Source: Alphaproteobacteria bacterium
GTDB taxonomy: Bacteria; Pseudomonadota; Alphaproteobacteria; SP197
NCBI GenBank assembly: GCA_964291415.2
Contig: OZ219920.1
Span: 576,001 to 640,000 of the forward strand
DNA: 64,000 bases
Reading direction: 5' to 3'
Position numbers and translations under genes: made by a program. The notes beneath the pieces are model-generated. The model did not search any database. It was not told where the DNA came from and saw nothing but the letters and a program-made list of their open reading frames with translations. Positions within the stretch are counted from its first letter, which is position 1; each line of letters begins with the position of its first letter. Shown one piece after another: positions 56,568 through 64,000 of this stretch.

Positions 56568-57061
56568 ACGGGCGATGGCCGGTCACAGCAGACCCTTTTT
56601 GCGGGTGTCGGAAATCATCCGCTTCTTCGGCATGGTGCGCTGCATCACGGCGAGGCCCACCCTCCACCCGCCAGGTTGCGATGATGACGTTCTTGGCCCG
56701 GAACGTGCGTGCCGCGAAGGGTGCTCACCGTGACGCGATCGTCTTCGGCTGCGATGTCGTCGACCTCCGCAATCGTTCGGTGGCGCGGCAGGACGGCGCC
56801 TCCATGAAGAGTTCCGGATGCCGGAACCATGTGCCATTCGAAGGGGACGCCGTCGGGCGATTCCCTGAAATGCCCCGCCATCGCCAACCGTATCCCTCAG
56901 GCCCGGGCCTTAAGGCAGGAAGCGGAACCTGGCCTCCCGTACACGTCCCATCGGCCAGGCGGGCGGCTTGATCAGCCATGTCGGATCGCTTCTCGGCCTT
57001 GTCCACGTTTCTTTCCCGCTCGGGGAATTTCATTCCATGAGGGTCGTTTGCCTCTTGTGTG

Positions 57062-57123
57062 ATCCTTATCGGGACATTTTAGTTGACAGAACCCAGGAAC
57101 CAAGGCATGTTCCCGTTCGGTAA
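57062..57123 (+). promoter_or_regulatory. hipBA promoter and operators
   Basis: TTGACA (57083-88)-17 nt-CATGTT, flanked by imperfect dyads TCCTTATCGGGA and TTCCCGTTCGGTAA. Confidence 0.55.
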
Positions 57124-57128
57124 ACTCC

Positions 57129-57371
57129 ATGCTCCACCGAACCCTCACACCCGCAGACATTGGCCGCGTCGTCAGAGCCACCCGCAAGTCCGCCGGGCTG
57201 CGCCAGGACGAACTAGCCGGGGCGGCCGGTGTTGGCCTGCGCTTCCTCGTTGAGCTCGAACGCGGAAAGCCGACCGCACAAATCGGCAAGGCGCTTCAGG
57301 TCCTGCAGGCCCTCGGTTGCTCACTGGACATCGCGACACCGCCGGAGCCCGAGGACACGGAGAAGGGATGA
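57129..57371 (+). CDS. hipB: HipB-like HTH antitoxin
   Basis: LRQDELAGAAGVGLRFLVELERGKPT. Confidence 0.9.
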   Translation: MLHRTLTPADIGRVVRATRKSAGLRQDELAGAAGVGLRFLVELERGKPTAQIGKALQVLQALGCSLDIATPPEPEDTEKG

Positions 57372-58628
57372 GGCGTGTTCTCCACGTCTGGTGGGACGGG
57401 AAACCTGTCGGCCAGCTGACTCAGGATCGCTACGGCGACCTCGGGTTCGCCTATTCCGAGAGTTGGCTTCGCGATGAGAGTGCCCAGCCTCTCTCCGCTT
57501 CCCTGCCCAAGCGCGAGGAGCCGTTTTCCCCGCCGCGAGTGCCGCCCCTTCTTTGCCGGCCTGCTGCCCGAGGACAGTCAGCGCAACGCCGCCGCCCAGG
57601 CGTTGGGCGTATCCAGCGGCAACGACTTTGCGCTTCTCGAAGGCCTTGGCGGCGACGTGGCAGGCGCACTTCAGCTCCTGCCGCCTGGAGAGCCTCCAGG
57701 AGACTCCGACTTCGACAGCCAGCCGTCTCCACTCGATGAGGCGGAGCTGATCGGCGTGCTTGACGCATTGCCGACACGCCCATTGCTTGCGGGCACAGAG
57801 GGGCTCAGGCTCTCACTCGCCGGCGCCCAGTCCAAGTTGCCGGTTGTTCTCGTGGATGGCGATATCGCTTTGCCCCTGTCCGGGCAACCGACCACTCACA
57901 TTCTGAAGCCGCCGGTCGCAAGGTTTCCCGGTACCACAGAGAATGAAGCCTTCGTGATGCGGCTCGCCGCAGACATCGGTCTTGATGTCGCACGGGTGGA
58001 ACCGCGCCTGATCGGCAACCGGCCGTTCCTCCTGGTTGAGAGGTATGACCGTTTCGTGGGTGCCGATCGCAGAACCCGGCGCATCCACCAGGAAGACTTC
58101 TGTCAAGCGCTCTCGGTGCCGCCGGAACTGAAGTATGCCGAAGAGGGAGGTCCGACGCTTGAAGACTGCTTTCGCCTTCTCCGCTCTCTCTCCATTCACC
58201 CGGCACTCGACATCCTGAAGCTGCTCGATGCGGTCATTTTCAATCTGATCGTCGGCAATGCCGACGCGCACGGAAAGAACTTCTCCATCCTGTACCGCAG
58301 GAGCGGGCCCCGTCTCGCGCCCCTCTACGATCTGCTGTCGACCGTGGCCTGGCCCGAGCTGTCGCCCAGGTTCGCCATGACGATCGGCAAGCGCGCGACG
58401 CTCGCGGAACTGGACGCCGAGGGCTGGGCGGCATTCGCTTCTGGCGCCGTCCTGGGGTTGCCTTTCGTGCGCCGTCGCGTTGCCGACATCAGCCAGACCA
58501 TCAAGACACGGGCGGAAAGGGTGGCATGCACACTGAAGTATCCGGGTCTGGATGCGGGGATTCTCTCGCGTATGGCCAAACGCATCGCAGACCGGGCGGA
58601 GCGGTGCGTCCATACGATCCGGGAGTGA
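57368..58628 (+). pseudogene. hipA: HipA kinase toxin with +1 frameshift near 57530
   Basis: HipA_N PLSASLP, then shift in TTTTCCCC to FFAGLLPE; SLAGAQSK, IHQEDFCQ, GNADAHGKN, LAPLYD. Confidence 0.88.
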
Positions 58629-59141
58629 CGTCGACTCCGATATGATGTTCTTGCGGCACCCTGACGGTATCAGAGTGCCGTGGCGTCCGGTCGAAAATCA
58701 CCCGACACACTGCCGAAGTGCGTGGTTCCGGGCCTGAGTGGAGTGCTTTGTCAGATGCTCATCCGCCGAGACTGAAAGAGCTTTCAAGCGGCGCGGGCGT
58801 GGTGCCCGAGCGTTCGAAAAGATGGAGTGGCGGAACAGCTTGTGCGACATTGGCGGCGTCTCTCGTCGATATCATCGTCACCGAGGCAAGCTCCTCGGCG
58901 GTCTTCTTGCAAGATCGCCAGGTGCGCTCTCCCCAAGATCTCGATCAATCTGAGCGAATCAACCCCGAATCGCCGCTGAAAGCCTACGCCCGCTCCGTCG
59001 TGAGCTTGGGCGGGTGAGAGTGTCGGTGAAGGAAGATTGTTCGGCTTGAAATGATGTTGACGGCACGGCCCCTGCCACTTGCGGTCGAACACTTGGGGCT
59101 CTATATGTTCTGTTATTGTTCCATCGTGCAAAGCCCGTCCA

Positions 59142-60089
59142 ATGTCGTTGCCGTCGCAGCCTCATGATACGCTCTTCCGGGCGATCGTCTCCGCACCGCC
59201 GCTTGCCGCAGCGCTGCTGGCAGACTATCTCCCGGGCGAACTCGGCGCCCTCCTTGACCCCGCCAAGCCGCCGGAGCACGTCGAGGGCACGTTCATCGAT
59301 GACGAGGGGGGCAGATGCCAGTGCGACGCGCTCTTCCGTGCGCGCCTTGCCACGGGCGAGCCTCTTCACATTTACGTGCTCGTCGAGCACAAGAGCCAGG
59401 TTGACGGGACGACGCCTCTGCAGTTGCTGGGCTACATGGTGAACATCTGGCGCCGGGATCTTGCGGACGGGACGGGAAACGTGAAGCCGATCGTTCCCCT
59501 GGTCTTCTACCACGGTCGGCAGGAATGGCGGGTGCCACTGTCGGTGGCGGCGATGATCGACGCGCCGGAGGTTCTGGCGCCGTATGTGCGGGACTTTGCC
59601 TACACGGTGCACGATCTGGGCCGGATTGCGCCGGAGCGGCTCAGCCGCGATCCGGAAGTGCGCTCGGCGCTGGTGGCGACGGCGACGGACATGGGCCCGG
59701 AGGATCTGGACCGGATCGGCGCCGCTCTGGTTGCCGACGGCGTCATGGAACGTGATATTCTGCACTACCTTGCCGAGGTGGCGAATCTGATGCCGGCGGC
59801 GATGAAGGCTTCGTTGAGGCGCACACAGCCGGAACGATGGGAGATGCTGATGGGCACGATGGCAGAAACGTGGCTTGAAGAGGGACGGACAGAGGGACGG
59901 ACCGAGGGTCGGACCGAGGGAAAGGCCGAGCTGCTCCTGCAATTGATGGAACGGCGTTTCGGGGAGGTGTCAGAGACGGTGCGATCGCGCGTCTCCGGAG
60001 CCTCGACGGACGAGCTCGAGGCCTGGGGTGACGCGTTGCTTGAGGCGGCGAGCCTCGACGAGGTCATTGCTCGCGCATCCCGGCACTGA
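59142..60089 (+). CDS. Rpn-family recombination-promoting nuclease / putative transposase with DUF4351-like C-terminus
   Basis: PHDTLFR, CDALF, VLVEHKS, PLVFYHG..W; EGRT repeats then LLLQLMERRFG..ELEAWGDALL. Confidence 0.92.
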   Translation: MSLPSQPHDTLFRAIVSAPPLAAALLADYLPGELGALLDPAKPPEHVEGTFIDDEGGRCQCDALFRARLATGEPLHIYVLVEHKSQVDGTTPLQLLGYMVNIWRRDLADGTGNVKPIVPLVFYHGRQEWRVPLSVAAMIDAPEVLAPYVRDFAYTVHDLGRIAPERLSRDPEVRSALVATATDMGPEDLDRIGAALVADGVMERDILHYLAEVANLMPAAMKASLRRTQPERWEMLMGTMAETWLEEGRTEGRTEGRTEGKAELLLQLMERRFGEVSETVRSRVSGASTDELEAWGDALLEAASLDEVIARASRH

Positions 60090-60196
60090 CGACTCCCCGC
60101 TGTGTTCGTCCGACCTTGGCCGCGTCGCAGGATCTGATGCCGACGGCGATGGAGAGTTCGCTGAGGCGCACGCAGCCGGAACGATGGGAGATGCTG

Positions 60197-60412
60197 ATGG
60201 GCACGATGGCGGAAACATGGATTGAAGTGGGCCGAACCGAGGGAAAGGCAGATCTGCTCCTGCGGCAGATGAAGCTGCGCTTTGGGGAACTGCCGGGGGC
60301 GGTGCGCACACGCATTGCCGGCGCCTCGACGGAGGAGCTTGACGCCTGGGGAGCGGCATTGCTGGACGCGCCAACCATCGAAGACGTCATGACCTCCTGT
60401 TCCCGGCACTGA
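60197..60412 (+). CDS. Rpn C-terminal cassette 1 (71 aa, RpnS-like)
   Basis: GGAG-6 nt-ATG; MGTMAETW...LDAWGAALL...SRH; homologous to the Rpn C-terminus. Confidence 0.75.
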   Translation: MGTMAETWIEVGRTEGKADLLLRQMKLRFGELPGAVRTRIAGASTEELDAWGAALLDAPTIEDVMTSCSRH

Positions 60413-60519
60413 CGACTCCCTGCTGCGTTCGTCCGACCTTGGCCGCGTTGCAGGACCTGACGCCGACGGCGATGCAGAGTTCGCTGGGGCGCACGCAGCC
60501 GGAACGATGGGAGATGCTG

Positions 60520-60735
60520 ATGGGCACGATGGCGGAAACATGGATTGAAGAGGGTCTGACTCAGGGTCAGGTAAGGGTGCTGCTGCGACTGATGGAGCGG
60601 CGGTTCGAGGAGGTGCCGGAGGCGGTGCGTGCACGCGTCGTCAGGGCCTCGATGGACGAGCTCGATGCCTGGGGCGATGCGCTGGTGGACGCGGCGACCC
60701 TCGACGAGGTCATCGCTCGTGCATCGCGGCACTGA
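60520..60735 (+). CDS. Rpn C-terminal cassette 2 (71 aa, RpnS-like)
   Basis: Exactly 323 bp after cassette 1; same leader, diverged body. Confidence 0.75.
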   Translation: MGTMAETWIEEGLTQGQVRVLLRLMERRFEEVPEAVRARVVRASMDELDAWGDALVDAATLDEVIARASRH

Positions 60736-61088
60736 CGGTACCGAACTGCGTTCGCCTGGCCATGGACAATGACCCGGACAAGCGGTGGCGGAGGGGTGGC
60801 GTCGTGCCGCCGGAAGGCACGATGGCACGGACGTGGTTTGAACAGGGTTTTGCCGAGGGTTTGGGCGAAGTGCGTGCCGAATGGGACAGGGAGCGTGCCT
60901 TCGGAATGGCGGAACTGCTGTCAATCCCAACCGAAAATTGCTCACTTTTCGGAATCGAAAATCTCTCACTGTGGCTGGGTGCAGCTGTGGGTAACTGGCC
61001 CGCCGCAGCGACCGCCACGAGTCTGGCGGCGGGGGGCCAGTTATCCACAGCGGGCGTCTCGCGCTGAAGTTGTTGTTGTTGGCGGCGA

Positions 61089-61880
61089 TCATGATCCGTC
61101 CTTCTTCCGGCGCCGCTCGGCGCCGGCCTGCAGCAGGTTCTGGTGATCGCGCATGCGATAGCTGTTCCCGCGGATGTTGACGATGTGGCAGTGATGGAGC
61201 AGGCGGTCGATCAGAGCTGCCGCCATGACCTCGTCGCCGAGCACGGCGCCCCACTCCTCGAAGCCCTTGTTGGAGGTGAGCACGGTCGAGGTCCTCTCGT
61301 GTCTGGCGTTGATGAGCTGGAAGAAGAGCACGGCGCCGTCCTGGCTGACGGGCAGGTAGCCGATCTCGTCGACGACGAGGAGAGGTGGATGGGTGAGCAC
61401 GCGCAGTCGGCGCGCCAGGTTGCCGGCGGCCCTGGCCTCGGTGAGGGAGTCGATGAGCCCTGTGAGCGTGCCGTAGTAGACGCGCCGTCCGGCCTCGGCC
61501 GCGGCAATCGCCAGGCTGATGGCCAAGTGAGTCTTCCCGACCCCTGGCGGGCCGAGCAGGATCACGTTCTCGCGGCGCTCGACGAAGCCGAGTTCGTGCA
61601 GGCTCTCGATCTGCTCGCGCTTGATGGAGGGCTGGAAGGCGAAGTCGAACTCCTCGAGGGTCTTGACCGCGGGCAGCCTGGAGGAGCGCATGGCGGTCTG
61701 CAGCCTGCGGTTGTTGCGCAGCACGATGTGGGCGTTCAGCAGCTGCTCGATGGCCTCGGCGGCTGAGATGGCGCCGCTGTCGGCCTGCGCCAGGATGCCG
61801 TCGACGGCCTCGAGGGCGCCGGGCATCTTGAGGTCGGCGAGCATGGCCCGCAGCCGGTCGCGGCGTGTCGGGGCCTTCAT
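61089..61880 (-). CDS. istB: IS21 helper ATPase IstB
   Basis: GPPGVGKTHLA, LLVVDEIGY, IDRLLHH. Confidence 0.93.
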   Translation of the reverse strand: MKAPTRRDRLRAMLADLKMPGALEAVDGILAQADSGAISAAEAIEQLLNAHIVLRNNRRLQTAMRSSRLPAVKTLEEFDFAFQPSIKREQIESLHELGFVERRENVILLGPPGVGKTHLAISLAIAAAEAGRRVYYGTLTGLIDSLTEARAAGNLARRLRVLTHPPLLVVDEIGYLPVSQDGAVLFFQLINARHERTSTVLTSNKGFEEWGAVLGDEVMAAALIDRLLHHCHIVNIRGNSYRMRDHQNLLQAGAERRRKKDGS

Positions 61881-62895
61881 TGCAGTGCCTCGGCGTAGAC
61901 GCTGAGCGGCCGCCGCTCGACGTCCACGGCGGCCGGCAGGCGCCGCGGCGCCGGATCCGGGGTCTGGCGCAGACCGAGCCGTCGGTAGGGGCTGTTGGCC
62001 AGGGGCCGCAGCACCGCGCTTTCGTCGCGTTCGAAGCGGTCGACGGGGCGCTCCCCGGTCGTGCCGTGCCGACGCACGTTGGCCACCGCGTCGAGCCAGC
62101 CTGCGGCCTGCAGGTTGAGATCGTCGTCGTTGGCGAACTCCCGACCATAGAAGAAACTCTCCCGGATGTAGCGGATCGGGCGCTCGACCTTGCCCTTGGT
62201 CCGCGCCCTGTAGGGCCTGCACGAGCGGGGCAGGAAGCCCCAGTGCCTGGCGAAGCGCAGGAACTCCTCGTTGAGCACCAGGCCGCCGCCGGCGGCGCGG
62301 TCGTCGGACAGCACGACAGCGCGCATCTGGTCGAACAGCATCTCGTCGGGAACCCCGCCGAATGCCTCGAAGGCGCTCTCCAGACCCTCCATCAGGACCG
62401 GCATCGTCTGGCGGTGGTAGAAGCGCAACCACAAGAGCCGGGAGTAGCCGAGGACGACCACCAGCGCGTGACGCCGGCCCCAGGGAAGCCGGAAGGTGCC
62501 GAAGTCCACCTGGCCTTGGCGCCCTGCCGGCGTCTCGAACCGCACCGCCGGCTCGACCGGCTCACGCGGCCGAACCGTGCGCACGTACTGCCGCACGCGA
62601 TCATAGCCGCCCGGATAGCCGGCCGCGCGGACCTCGTCGAACAGACGCTTCGCCGACAGCTTCGGAAACTCCTCGAGACGTGTATCGATGATCGCCTTGT
62701 GTCCAGCTTGTGAGCCATCGGCGGGCGTGGCGAATATCCCTTCGGACCGGCCTCGAGGTCCCGGTCCAACTGACCCGTCTCGATCCAGTGGTGGATCGTG
62801 CGACGGTTCACCCCAAAACGCCGTGACAACTCCGCCTTCGAGACGCCCCGGTCCAGATAGTGCTTGAGCAACATCCTGGTCTCCCATCTGTACAT
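61877..62895 (-). pseudogene. istA: IS21 transposase IstA, frameshift near 62700
   Basis: HTH N-terminus ending HKLD in one frame; RFETPAGRQGQVDF, LFDQM, TKGKVER in another. Confidence 0.88.
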
Positions 62896-63253
62896 CCGCG
62901 CACCGCTTCCCGCTGCTGTTGGCTTCGCCAACAGCAGCGGTCCGGTGCACCTCAGTGACAACCCCAAAGTGAGAAACTTTGAGTGCGCATATGTGGGAGA
63001 TTTACGATCAGCACTAACAACTGCTCCTGCAATTGATGAAACGGCGCTTCGGGGAGGTGTCAGATACGGTGCGATCACGCGTCTCCGGGGCCTCGACGGA
63101 CGAGCTCGAAGCCTGGGGCGACGCGTTGCTTGAGGCGGCGACCCTCGACGAGGTCATGACTCGCGCATCCCGGCACTGACGACACCGAGCTGCGTTCGCC
63201 TGGCCACCGACAAGCGGTGGCGGAGGGGTGGCATCGCGCCGCCGGCAGGCACG

Positions 63254-63289
63254 ATGGCACGGACATGGTTTGAACAGGGGTTTGGTTGA
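63254..63289 (+). pseudogene. Rpn C-terminal cassette 4, truncated (MARTWFEQGFG*)
   Basis: Leader 63180-63253 is similar to the cassette 3 leader 60736-60821. Confidence 0.7.
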
Positions 63290-64000
63290 AGCGCCTGCCC
63301 GTCGCTTGACATAGGGCCCTTCACAACGTGGATGCAATCATGGCAACGACGGCCCCGGCCACGATGATCGTCCCGCTGCCGTCAGGAAGTGGGTGCAAAG
63401 GGACCTGGCGGCCTACGAGCCCTGTCGCAGTGACCCCCGAGAGGAATCCTCGATGAGCCGCCCGGTGGATTGCGACGTCCCGGGCTTCGATGCCGGAGCC
63501 CCGCGTGCACCTGTGTTGCTCACTTTGACCTGGCGGCCGTGTTCCGCTCGCCGAAGTCCGGGCCCTATGGCCCGGCATCCTCCTTGAGCATCCATGTTTC
63601 GGTGCAAGGTTTTGTGAGCGTGCGTGAAGATGTTTCCCTGGTCTGTCCCCATGCGGTGTGACGTTCCGACATCGCGGTGTCTACGCCCCGTGGCCAGGGA
63701 GACGTTGAGTTCGTGATCCCGGCAGCATGAGGGGGTGTTCGGAATATGAAGTCAGGATCATGTCCGCGCTCCGTGGTCAGTGTGCACAGGAAGCCGGTTC
63801 GGCATGGAGATCAGTCGACATCACGGTTTCCAAGACGTTCTTCATGCATGCCGATTCTCGTTCAGGTGCCACCGGGAACTCGTGCGTTGGTCAGCGGCGA
63901 GAGGAATTCGGACACCCCGGTCTCAGGCTGGATACGGGGAGTTCGGCGGGCTCGCATGGTCCAGGACTGCTTCGGTTGGCGCGCCGGTGGAGGGCCGCTA

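Follow-up and report, generated by a model that had tools for sequence, protein, structure and literature searches.

An rpn toxin–antitoxin gene followed by tandem, diverged copies of its own 3′ end in an alphaproteobacterial genome

We analyzed a stretch of 64,000 nucleotides, referred to here as the window, from an Alphaproteobacteria bacterium of the GTDB lineage SP197 (GenBank assembly GCA_964291415.2, contig OZ219920.1, positions 576,001 to 640,000 of the forward strand). Near its end, the window holds a single gene of the Rpn nuclease family, followed on the same strand by a head-to-tail series of copies of the 3′ end of that gene, which we call cassettes. Rpn proteins are anti-phage nucleases; RpnS neutralizes RpnL, and the two together protect the cell against phage. 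The toxin of the family is RpnL, and its antitoxin, RpnS, is encoded within the same gene (Zhong et al. 2023, PMC10400941, as described in its main text; Koonin commentary, PMC10400984). On balance, we favor the reading that the locus is one rpn toxin–antitoxin gene with head-to-tail copies of its own 3′ end, and that the cassettes are free-standing rpnS-type genes that would supply extra RpnS products and act as donors for the tail of the nuclease gene. The units have open frames, are under coding constraint and are mosaic; they are also present in other strains, and one of them was interrupted recently by an insertion sequence (IS).

Architecture of the rpn locus

The N-terminal part of the rpn gene matches the Pfam family PF04754 (Transposase_31, YhgA/Rpn, a PD-(D/E)XK domain) over residues 6–177 with an E-value of 8.1e-38 (130.5 bits against a cut-off of 21), and its C-terminus matches PF14261 (DUF4351) over residues 255–307 with an E-value of 2.2e-11. 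Both domains had been named in the original prediction, which was made from the letters of the sequence, and both are borne out by these profiles. The NCBIfam Rpn subfamily model TIGR01784 scores the gene at 33.8 bits, under its 52.1 cut-off, and no PADLOC model matched the Rpn gene or the cassettes. In profile searches of the whole 4.44-Mb genome, this is the sole PF04754 gene, and the four DUF4351 matches all lie inside the rpn locus.

The repeated ending of the gene defines the array. Its last nine bases, CGGCACTGA, end at positions 60089, 60412, 60735 and 63179 on the plus strand; the window contains six matches to them against 1.15 expected, a number reached in none of 100 shuffles. Tandem Repeats Finder (TRF) reports a period of 323 with 2.6 copies and 78% matches across 59904–60737, and a repeat search of the locus finds four copies at spacings of 323, 323 and 2444. 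The recurrent endings and the 323-bp period on which the original prediction was built are thus confirmed by shuffling and by TRF. The features of the locus are listed in Table 1.

Table 1. Features of the rpn locus, with positions in the window, and contigs of other assemblies to which related proteins were assigned
Feature	Position	Strand	Details
rpn gene (RpnL, 315 aa)	59142-60089	+	ATG at 59142; alternative start TTG at 59079
Embedded RpnS frame (79 aa)	59850-60089	+	second in-frame ATG, 6 nt behind GGGAG (59839-59843); putative start
Conserved 38-nt start block	59826-59863, 60173-60210, 60496-60533	+	gene, cassettes 1 and 2
12-nt (4-residue) repeats, helix 1 of gene tail	59879-59921	+	TRF period 12, 3.6 copies; about three units
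Cassette 1 (323 bp)	60090-60412	+	open reading frame (ORF) 60116-60412, 98 aa from TTG; 71 aa from conserved ATG 60197
Cassette 2 (323 bp)	60413-60735	+	ORF 60439-60735, 98 aa; 71 aa from conserved ATG 60520
Cassette 3, 5′ part	60736-60918	+	different leader, type B; ATG at 60762
IS21-family element (2,101 bp)	60919-63019	-	istB 61089-61880; istA from about 62896 down to 61877
Cassette 3, 3′ part	63020-63179	+	DUF4351 core; first 5 nt are the duplicated target
Fourth-unit stub	63180-63289	+	type-B leader only; ends where the variable, repeat-prone helix region begins
68,530-nt contig (NCBI metagenome-assembled genome, MAG)			MDE0239421 (183 aa), -422 (103 aa), -424 (315-aa Rpn), -425 (89 aa)
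7,607-nt contig (ENA)			P0019 (161 aa), P0011 (103 aa), P0004 (74 aa), P0025 (94 aa, Rpn fragment)
83,736-nt contig (ENA)			P0003 (C-terminal part of rpn orthologue), P0012 (103 aa)

PF14261 is recognized in cassette 1 (E 8e-12), in cassette 2 (E 3.3e-9) and in the 3′ half of cassette 3 (E 2.2e-7). Cassette 1 was taken by the gene caller as a 91-aa protein, P0001, and the core type of cassette 2 recurs in P0019 of another assembly. No stop codon or frameshift is present in cassette 1, in cassette 2 or in the parts of cassette 3 that flank the IS, and the two halves of cassette 3 lie in one frame across the element, making up 312 nt, or 104 codons including the stop. The fourth unit is a stub whose positions 63184–63284 share 83% identity with the 5′ part of cassette 3, and it reaches an in-frame stop after 11 codons. 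Its shape would be that expected of the remnant of a tandem duplication with a breakpoint in the helix region.

The cores of the units are related to that of the gene to very different degrees. At the protein level, the identity to the gene core is 90% for cassette 3, 76% for cassette 2 and 52% for cassette 1, and at the nucleotide level it is 149/160, 131/160 and 114/160, respectively. The closest tail to cassette 2 is the gene's own, and cassette 3 likewise groups with the gene, whereas cassette 1 does not: among the genus tails compared, its best match is the gene of G002 at 68%, and it agrees at 40–44 of 51 positions with cassette proteins elsewhere.

Start block and coding constraint

A 38-nt block is present in three exact copies, where none is expected. 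It holds the motif GGGAG followed, 6 nt on, by an in-frame ATG, from which the short products listed in Table 1 are predicted for the gene (79 aa) and for cassettes 1 and 2 (71 aa each). In the rpn genes of three other species (G019, G002 and G010), which are about 80% identical overall, the block differs at 0–1 positions. Of 25 block copies in relatives, 24 retain the second ATG and 24 retain GGGAG, whereas 10 have GTG in place of the first in-frame ATG. This pattern of conservation fits the internal RpnS start published by Zhong et al. 2023, as given in their main text. The description of cassettes 1 and 2 in the original prediction, as units that share a block and a 3′ end with the gene, differ in between and keep their frames open, is therefore upheld by the exact 38-nt block and by PF14261 in both.

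Across the last 50 codons, the ratio of nonsynonymous to synonymous substitution rates (dN/dS) is 0.27–0.52 for all six pairs, at dS values of up to 0.73. The comparisons between cassettes give 0.38–0.52, and that of the gene with cassette 1 gives 0.39. The test of neutral evolution that the original prediction proposed thus returned values below 1 throughout. A sigma-70 scan of the locus returned no site, and no promoter-like site lies inside the array. Two terminator-like sites were found in the locus, both upstream of rpn and none between the units, which is no more than in shuffles. Rfam has no match within 57000–64000.

Mosaic structure of the units

The divergence between cassettes is not uniform along their length. 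Cassettes 1 and 2 are identical at 130 of 137 positions in their 5′ part, which includes 26 nt past the preceding stop, and at 130 of 186 positions beyond it (Fisher p 4.6e-9). At third codon positions, they are identical at 22 of 22 in the block and at 29 of 51 in the core. The leader of cassette 3 is unrelated to those of cassettes 1 and 2 and is common to the stub, although its core is near that of the gene.

Protein searches with cassette 1 and a relative returned small intact DUF4351 proteins in several assemblies, a number of them apparently grouped with rpn on the same contig (Table 1). P0012 shares 47 of 52 residues with the 5′ half of cassette 3 and 45 of 50 with the 3′ half, and since both halves match it, we take P0012 to be the intact form of cassette 3. 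When aligned, the proteins of the relatives resolve into three modules: a leader (A1, A2 or B), a helix (either a repeat series or a long non-repeat form) and a core (gene-type, c1-type or c2-type, the latter two after cassettes 1 and 2). Leaders A2 and B are each paired with gene-type and c1-type cores, so that all four combinations are found, a pattern that calls for recombination between leader and core. Judged by these alignments, the modules recombine.

The nuclease gene itself appears to take part. Upstream of the core, P0014 agrees with the resident Rpn at 119 of 125 residues, but within the core the agreement falls to 36 of 51 (Fisher p 2.1e-5); P0010, in contrast, agrees at 226 of 237 upstream residues and at 50 of 51 in the core. 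As the core of P0014 is divergent while the equally close P0010 keeps its core, tail replacement in the nuclease gene is likely.

Repeats, helix length and predicted pairing

Helix 1 of the gene tail carries the 4-residue repeats that are typical of the family; they begin about 11 residues after the presumed RpnS methionine, where the range for the family is 8–20 residues. Measured from the conserved GTMA to the core, the helix has a length of 27 in the gene, 19 in each of cassettes 1 and 2, and 34 in the cassette 3 type (P0012). The number of repeats varies from 0 to about 14 among relatives. The P0010 orthologue has a helix of 23, one repeat fewer than the gene's 27; a contig of an RNA library has 12 nt fewer in the repeat region of the gene tail; and the downstream copies of relatives depart in repeat number from the genes that they follow, in G010 for instance with 5 against 11. 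Zhong et al. 2023 (PMC10400941, main text) report that the pairing of RpnL with RpnS is tuned by how many 4-residue repeats there are, and that one extra repeat abolishes neutralization unless it is present in both partners.

A second 12-nt length polymorphism lies outside the tail. It consists of 12 nt (4 residues) in the rpn linker, behind position 59671, which are missing from the window and present in contigs of sequencing runs X1, X2 and X3, as well as in P0010, P0014, P0018 and other relatives; relative to the window, run X1 thus carries a 12-nt insertion at this point.

RpnS of this family is a bundle of three helices, of which the long first one dimerizes. The AlphaFold2 (AF2) model of the cassette 1 protein, with a predicted local distance difference test (pLDDT) score of 86.3, consists of one long helix and two shorter ones (residues 4–29, 34–41 and 45–55). 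Foldseek returned no hit for this model at E-values up to 0.001, the highest Z in a wide structural search was 6.5, for generic helical proteins, and phmmer and profile searches of the PDB sequences for a solved RpnS found nothing specific. We also modeled the gene's RpnS together with the cassette 1 protein. The predicted pair scores 0.51, against 0.01 for the best control, with runs agreeing in at least 97% of contacts and a partner pLDDT of at least 74; this lends weak support to pairing, given that 58 of 80 solved complexes and 2 of 110 mismatched pairs attain the pairing mark, and that scores of 0.60 or below among those passing the mark belong to only 7 of the 80 solved complexes but to both passing mismatches.

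The array in other sequencing runs

The sequencing runs consist of contigs and speak to presence, not to abundance or transcription. Contigs of run X1 bridge every junction between the gene and the first three units: gene to cassette 1 (59945–60168) with no differences, cassette 1 to cassette 2 (60198–60491) with 2 differences, and cassette 2 to cassette 3 (60525–60844) with 1 difference. On the strength of these bridging contigs and of the related assemblies with several small DUF4351 genes, we rejected an assembly artefact as the source of the array. In the RNA-library run X5, one contig covers 59836–60037 in the gene tail and none covers 60108–60862; this run is uninformative on transcription of the cassettes. 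A joint of 59398 to 60194 in run X2, which might have been read as a fusion of gene and cassette, was not used; it occurs in one contig with a side of 21 and connects non-homologous points.

The interruption of cassette 3 by an IS21-family element, and the reduction of the fourth unit to a stub, are both as first described. The element encodes IstB (E 4.1e-82) and an rve integrase (E 5e-12, both Pfam), ends in imperfect inverted repeats starting with TGT, and is flanked by a 5-bp duplication, ACTGC, at 60914–60918 and 63020–63024. No other full copy of it exists in the genome. Cassette 3 is joined without the IS in two contigs of run X1 and in one contig of run X2, which comes from another study; the insertion is therefore recent and not fixed. 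In run X2, cassette 3 has an additional 12-nt deletion in the helix region.

Several further features of the element were observed. The istA gene has one frame break near 62700, between the helix-turn-helix part and the integrase core, and so this copy may be disabled, or the break may be an assembly indel. A 26-nt inverted repeat at 60984–61051, 88% complementary with a 16-nt spacer, lies between the istB stop and the left end of the element, close to that end. Within istB, the stretch 61165–61315 reaches summed contig depths of up to 4,516 in X1 and 403 in X5, greatly exceeding those of its flanks, which implies that organisms across these samples carry related IS21 copies in abundance.

Distribution and genomic surroundings

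Within the genus, DUF4351 is present in 9 of 23 genomes. A single extra tail occurs in G010 and G013, and, in the form of a small upstream ORF, in G012 and G016. The search of related loci among species representatives, made with a single protein as query, gave 30 loci, of which 3 have one extra tail. The MAG that carries MDE0239421-425 lies outside the order's 33 representative genomes. In a sample of the phylum, DUF4351 occurs in at least 61 of 401 genomes; outside the genus, the frequency of arrays is known from samples only. Scans of metagenomes returned no locus with P0007 and four distant loci with Rpn.

One distant genome, G121, contains a comparable arrangement (contig C114, L069:1693-3325), in which two cassettes, more than 90% alike and with mosaic patches, come after a 311-aa gene that ends in a DUF4351 tail; a further cassette pair lies at a contig end of the same genome. 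The N-terminal domain of the 311-aa gene has no match in Pfam or NCBIfam, and the habit of carrying tail cassettes may thus extend beyond PF04754 nucleases.

Whole-gene rpn arrays are present in the relatives G010, G005 and G141; G010 has 21 rpn matches and G005 has 33, fragments and tail-only hits included. One region of G010 (C2:713000-750000, loci L026 and L027) holds at least 10 rpn copies or fragments in about 40 kb. Their nuclease domains are near-identical to one another (about 87% to that of the window) and their tails differ in repeat number, as in the whole-gene arrays described in the main text of Zhong et al.

The rpn locus is neighbored by a hipA-type gene, by genes for sugar-modifying enzymes and by genes for molybdenum enzymes, with no large defence island. 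The hipA-type toxin gene (57317–58628, plus strand), just upstream, is apparently split, with Couple_hipA recognized over the overlapping frames 57317–57739 and 57474–58628; this suggests a frameshift or an assembly indel.

Proposed origin and function of the array

We propose that a tandem duplication of the rpn 3′ end would have given rise to a series of units, which would then have recombined repeatedly among themselves and with other rpn alleles. Crossovers would probably fall in the 38-nt start block, which is almost invariant, and in the region of 12-nt repeats. Cassettes 1 and 2 would be free-standing rpnS-type genes, as would cassette 3 prior to the arrival of the IS, and each has a helix 1 of its own length. 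Most likely, these units would share a transcript with rpn and be translated into additional small RpnS proteins, and they would also be material that can replace the tail of the nuclease gene and hence its own antitoxin. Expression as antitoxins is plausible in view of the kept start block, the open frames, the dN/dS values below 1 and the intact counterparts elsewhere. Transcription and translation, the binding of the products to a partner, and any effect on toxicity or phage defence are predicted here from sequence.

Several observations weigh against this proposal. The published repeat rule predicts that cassettes 1 and 2, with helices of 19, would be non-neutralizing for the resident RpnL, with its helix of 27. 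Because the genome has a single Rpn toxin, a bank of antitoxins against different Rpn toxins, which was one of the two functions originally proposed, has no resident target and, as a bank against other toxins of the same genome, is not supported. Not every unit can be needed, since an IS is tolerated in cassette 3 and the fourth unit is a stub. In the type-B units the 38-nt block is absent, and only a weak GAAGG stands ahead of the internal ATG. Transcription and translation of the cassettes are deduced from the DNA itself. Larger arrays are also uncommon: three or more tandem tails occur in this genome only, 1 of the 23 of the genus; among the 30 related loci, none reaches two extra tails; and the 55 fully listed matches in five other genomes include one gene-plus-one pair and nothing larger. 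As for the other assemblies, the sharing of a contig by the proteins in Table 1 is deduced from equal contig sizes and neighboring accession numbers, not from DNA. Finally, the search for strains with swapped tails yielded one near-identical rpn with another tail, P0014, which is a damaged copy (out-of-frame start, internal deletion) known only as a protein call.

A more far-reaching form of the proposal, which we put forward tentatively and would not expect to hold, is modular tail-switching in this symbiont lineage. Here the 38-nt block would serve as a portable crossover at which the nuclease swaps its specificity tail, together with the embedded antitoxin, with the translated cassettes, and displaced tails would stay expressed as ‘legacy’ antitoxins. 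If so, a cell could change the specificity of its toxin and survive the old toxin molecules still present, and diversification of the kind seen in polymorphic toxins would extend to an intracellular defence toxin–antitoxin system.

The cassettes might instead be a silent reservoir, without useful translation, that donates DNA to the gene tail through the block by deletion or gene conversion. This was the second function originally proposed, and silent pilin cassettes and orphan toxin tips are the natural comparison. The recombination that it calls for agrees well with our data, from the exact block in the gene and cassettes 1 and 2 to the mosaic divergence of the units, the full set of module combinations and the near-identical rpn with the other tail of P0014; the lack of a promoter-like site inside the array is also in its favor. 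A fusion of the nuclease with a downstream rpnS is on record as well, in the main text of PMC10400941. It is the silence that does not find support. The putative crossover block reads as a ribosome-binding site and a start codon kept family-wide, and any transcript through the array should therefore be translated. The downstream copy of E. coli that was tested is made as protein (PMC10400941, main text), and both the dN/dS below 1 between cassettes and the frames that stay intact in several strains agree with selection on the protein, although this constraint could date from a time inside a full gene. We therefore consider a purely silent role improbable.

We also think it unlikely that the array is a neutral by-product, that is, slowly decaying, functionless debris left by tandem duplication and slippage at a gene prone to recombination, with Rpn as a possible trigger. 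Such an origin would account for the truncated fourth unit and the tolerated IS in the third, for the restriction of arrays of at least three to one genus genome in 23, and for the lack of flank synteny with the rpn loci of relatives, where the match is limited to the gene itself; moreover, the main text of PMC10400941 suggests that RpnL may itself initiate such recombination. Debris, however, would not be expected to keep cassettes 1 and 2 and the flanking parts of cassette 3 free of frameshifts and stops, nor to combine dN/dS of 0.27–0.52 at dS up to 0.73 with a perfectly kept start block. Intact counterparts of cassettes 2 and 3 and relatives of cassette 1 occur in other assemblies, and cassette 3 is free of the IS in two runs.

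Lastly, we strongly doubt that the cassettes protect against incoming toxins, in the manner of the orphan immunity genes of bacteriocin and contact-dependent inhibition systems: although their helices of 19, 19 and 34 are unlike the resident 27 and match rpn alleles of other strains (P0014, 19), and the many rpn paralogues of genus relatives (G010 with 21 matches, G005 with 33) mean that RpnL variants which plasmids, phages or other mobile DNA might bring do circulate, there is no resident non-cognate toxin, no Rpn on a mobile element of this lineage among the data examined, and little reason for a host to pre-empt an intracellular toxin that arrives with its embedded antitoxin.

Taken as a source of extra RpnS and of tail donors, the locus bears on two questions that the main text of Zhong et al. 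leaves open, namely the fast diversification of Rpn tails and the purpose of extra downstream RpnS copies. Together with its relatives, it forms a natural series in which one nuclease domain is combined with several diverged tails, differing helix lengths and a common start block. Two ideas thereby become testable: that standalone RpnS proteins are spare or legacy antitoxins, or that they are donors for tail replacement. If the donor idea is true, an intracellular defence system would join delivered toxins and surface antigens as a setting for cassette-based switching.

Comparison with known systems

The locus is a member of the Rpn system, because RpnL and RpnS, downstream copies, the repeat rule and tandem arrays have all been published, as set out in the main text of Zhong et al. 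2023 (PMC10400941). There, a second, translated RpnS copy derived from the upstream gene is described downstream of E. coli rpnE (ypaA/rpnESs) and rpnC (rpnCSs), and such downstream rpnS genes can disappear, either through deletion or when they become fused to the nuclease domain. The likeness to these standalone RpnS genes is close: in both cases a small DUF4351 gene lies on the same strand just 3′ of rpn, stems from the 3′ end of the gene and has variable 4-residue repeats. In contrast to the E. coli loci described in that text, which have one copy that clusters with its gene, the locus studied here has three full units and a stub, its units are strongly diverged, and it has two kinds of leader and modules that are reassorted among strains.

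The same main text reports that arrays of rpn genes arise through tandem direct duplication. The present array resembles them in its tandem duplication at an rpn locus without target-site duplications, and differs in that the tail alone is repeated, with a single nuclease domain in the genome. Titles and abstracts on Rpn/RpnS and DUF4351 contain no description of a multi-cassette RpnS array; the supplement of Zhong et al. 2023, which falls outside this scope, may hold multi-copy cases. The claim that no Rpn cassette array had been described was too strong. A single translated downstream RpnS, its fusion to the nuclease and tandem rpn arrays were already known; the multi-unit, diverged and modular array was not among them, and what is new beyond that main text is the number of units, the depth of their divergence, the two leader types and the reassortment of modules at the population level.

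A parallel outside toxin–antitoxin systems is provided by the TAEL repeats of EcoR124I/II, in which the number of 4-residue repeats in a long helix of the type I restriction specificity subunit changes specificity (as cited in PMC10400941, main text). As they are described there, the EcoR124I/II repeats involve no cassette array and no pairing of toxin with antitoxin.

A different kind of parallel is found in delivered polymorphic toxins. At CdiA-CT/CdiI and Rhs loci, the main gene is followed by promoterless C-terminal copies that begin with short stretches of homology, and modules are reassorted among strains. The rpn array shares with these orphan cassettes the series of promoterless C-terminal copies behind a main gene, the homology block at the start of each of its first two cassettes and the exchange of modules. 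In contrast to them, Rpn is an intracellular toxin–antitoxin nuclease rather than a delivered toxin; its toxic domain is the N-terminal nuclease, while the repeated tail is the pairing and antitoxin module; and no immunity ORF separates the units, whose homology block would double as a translation start.

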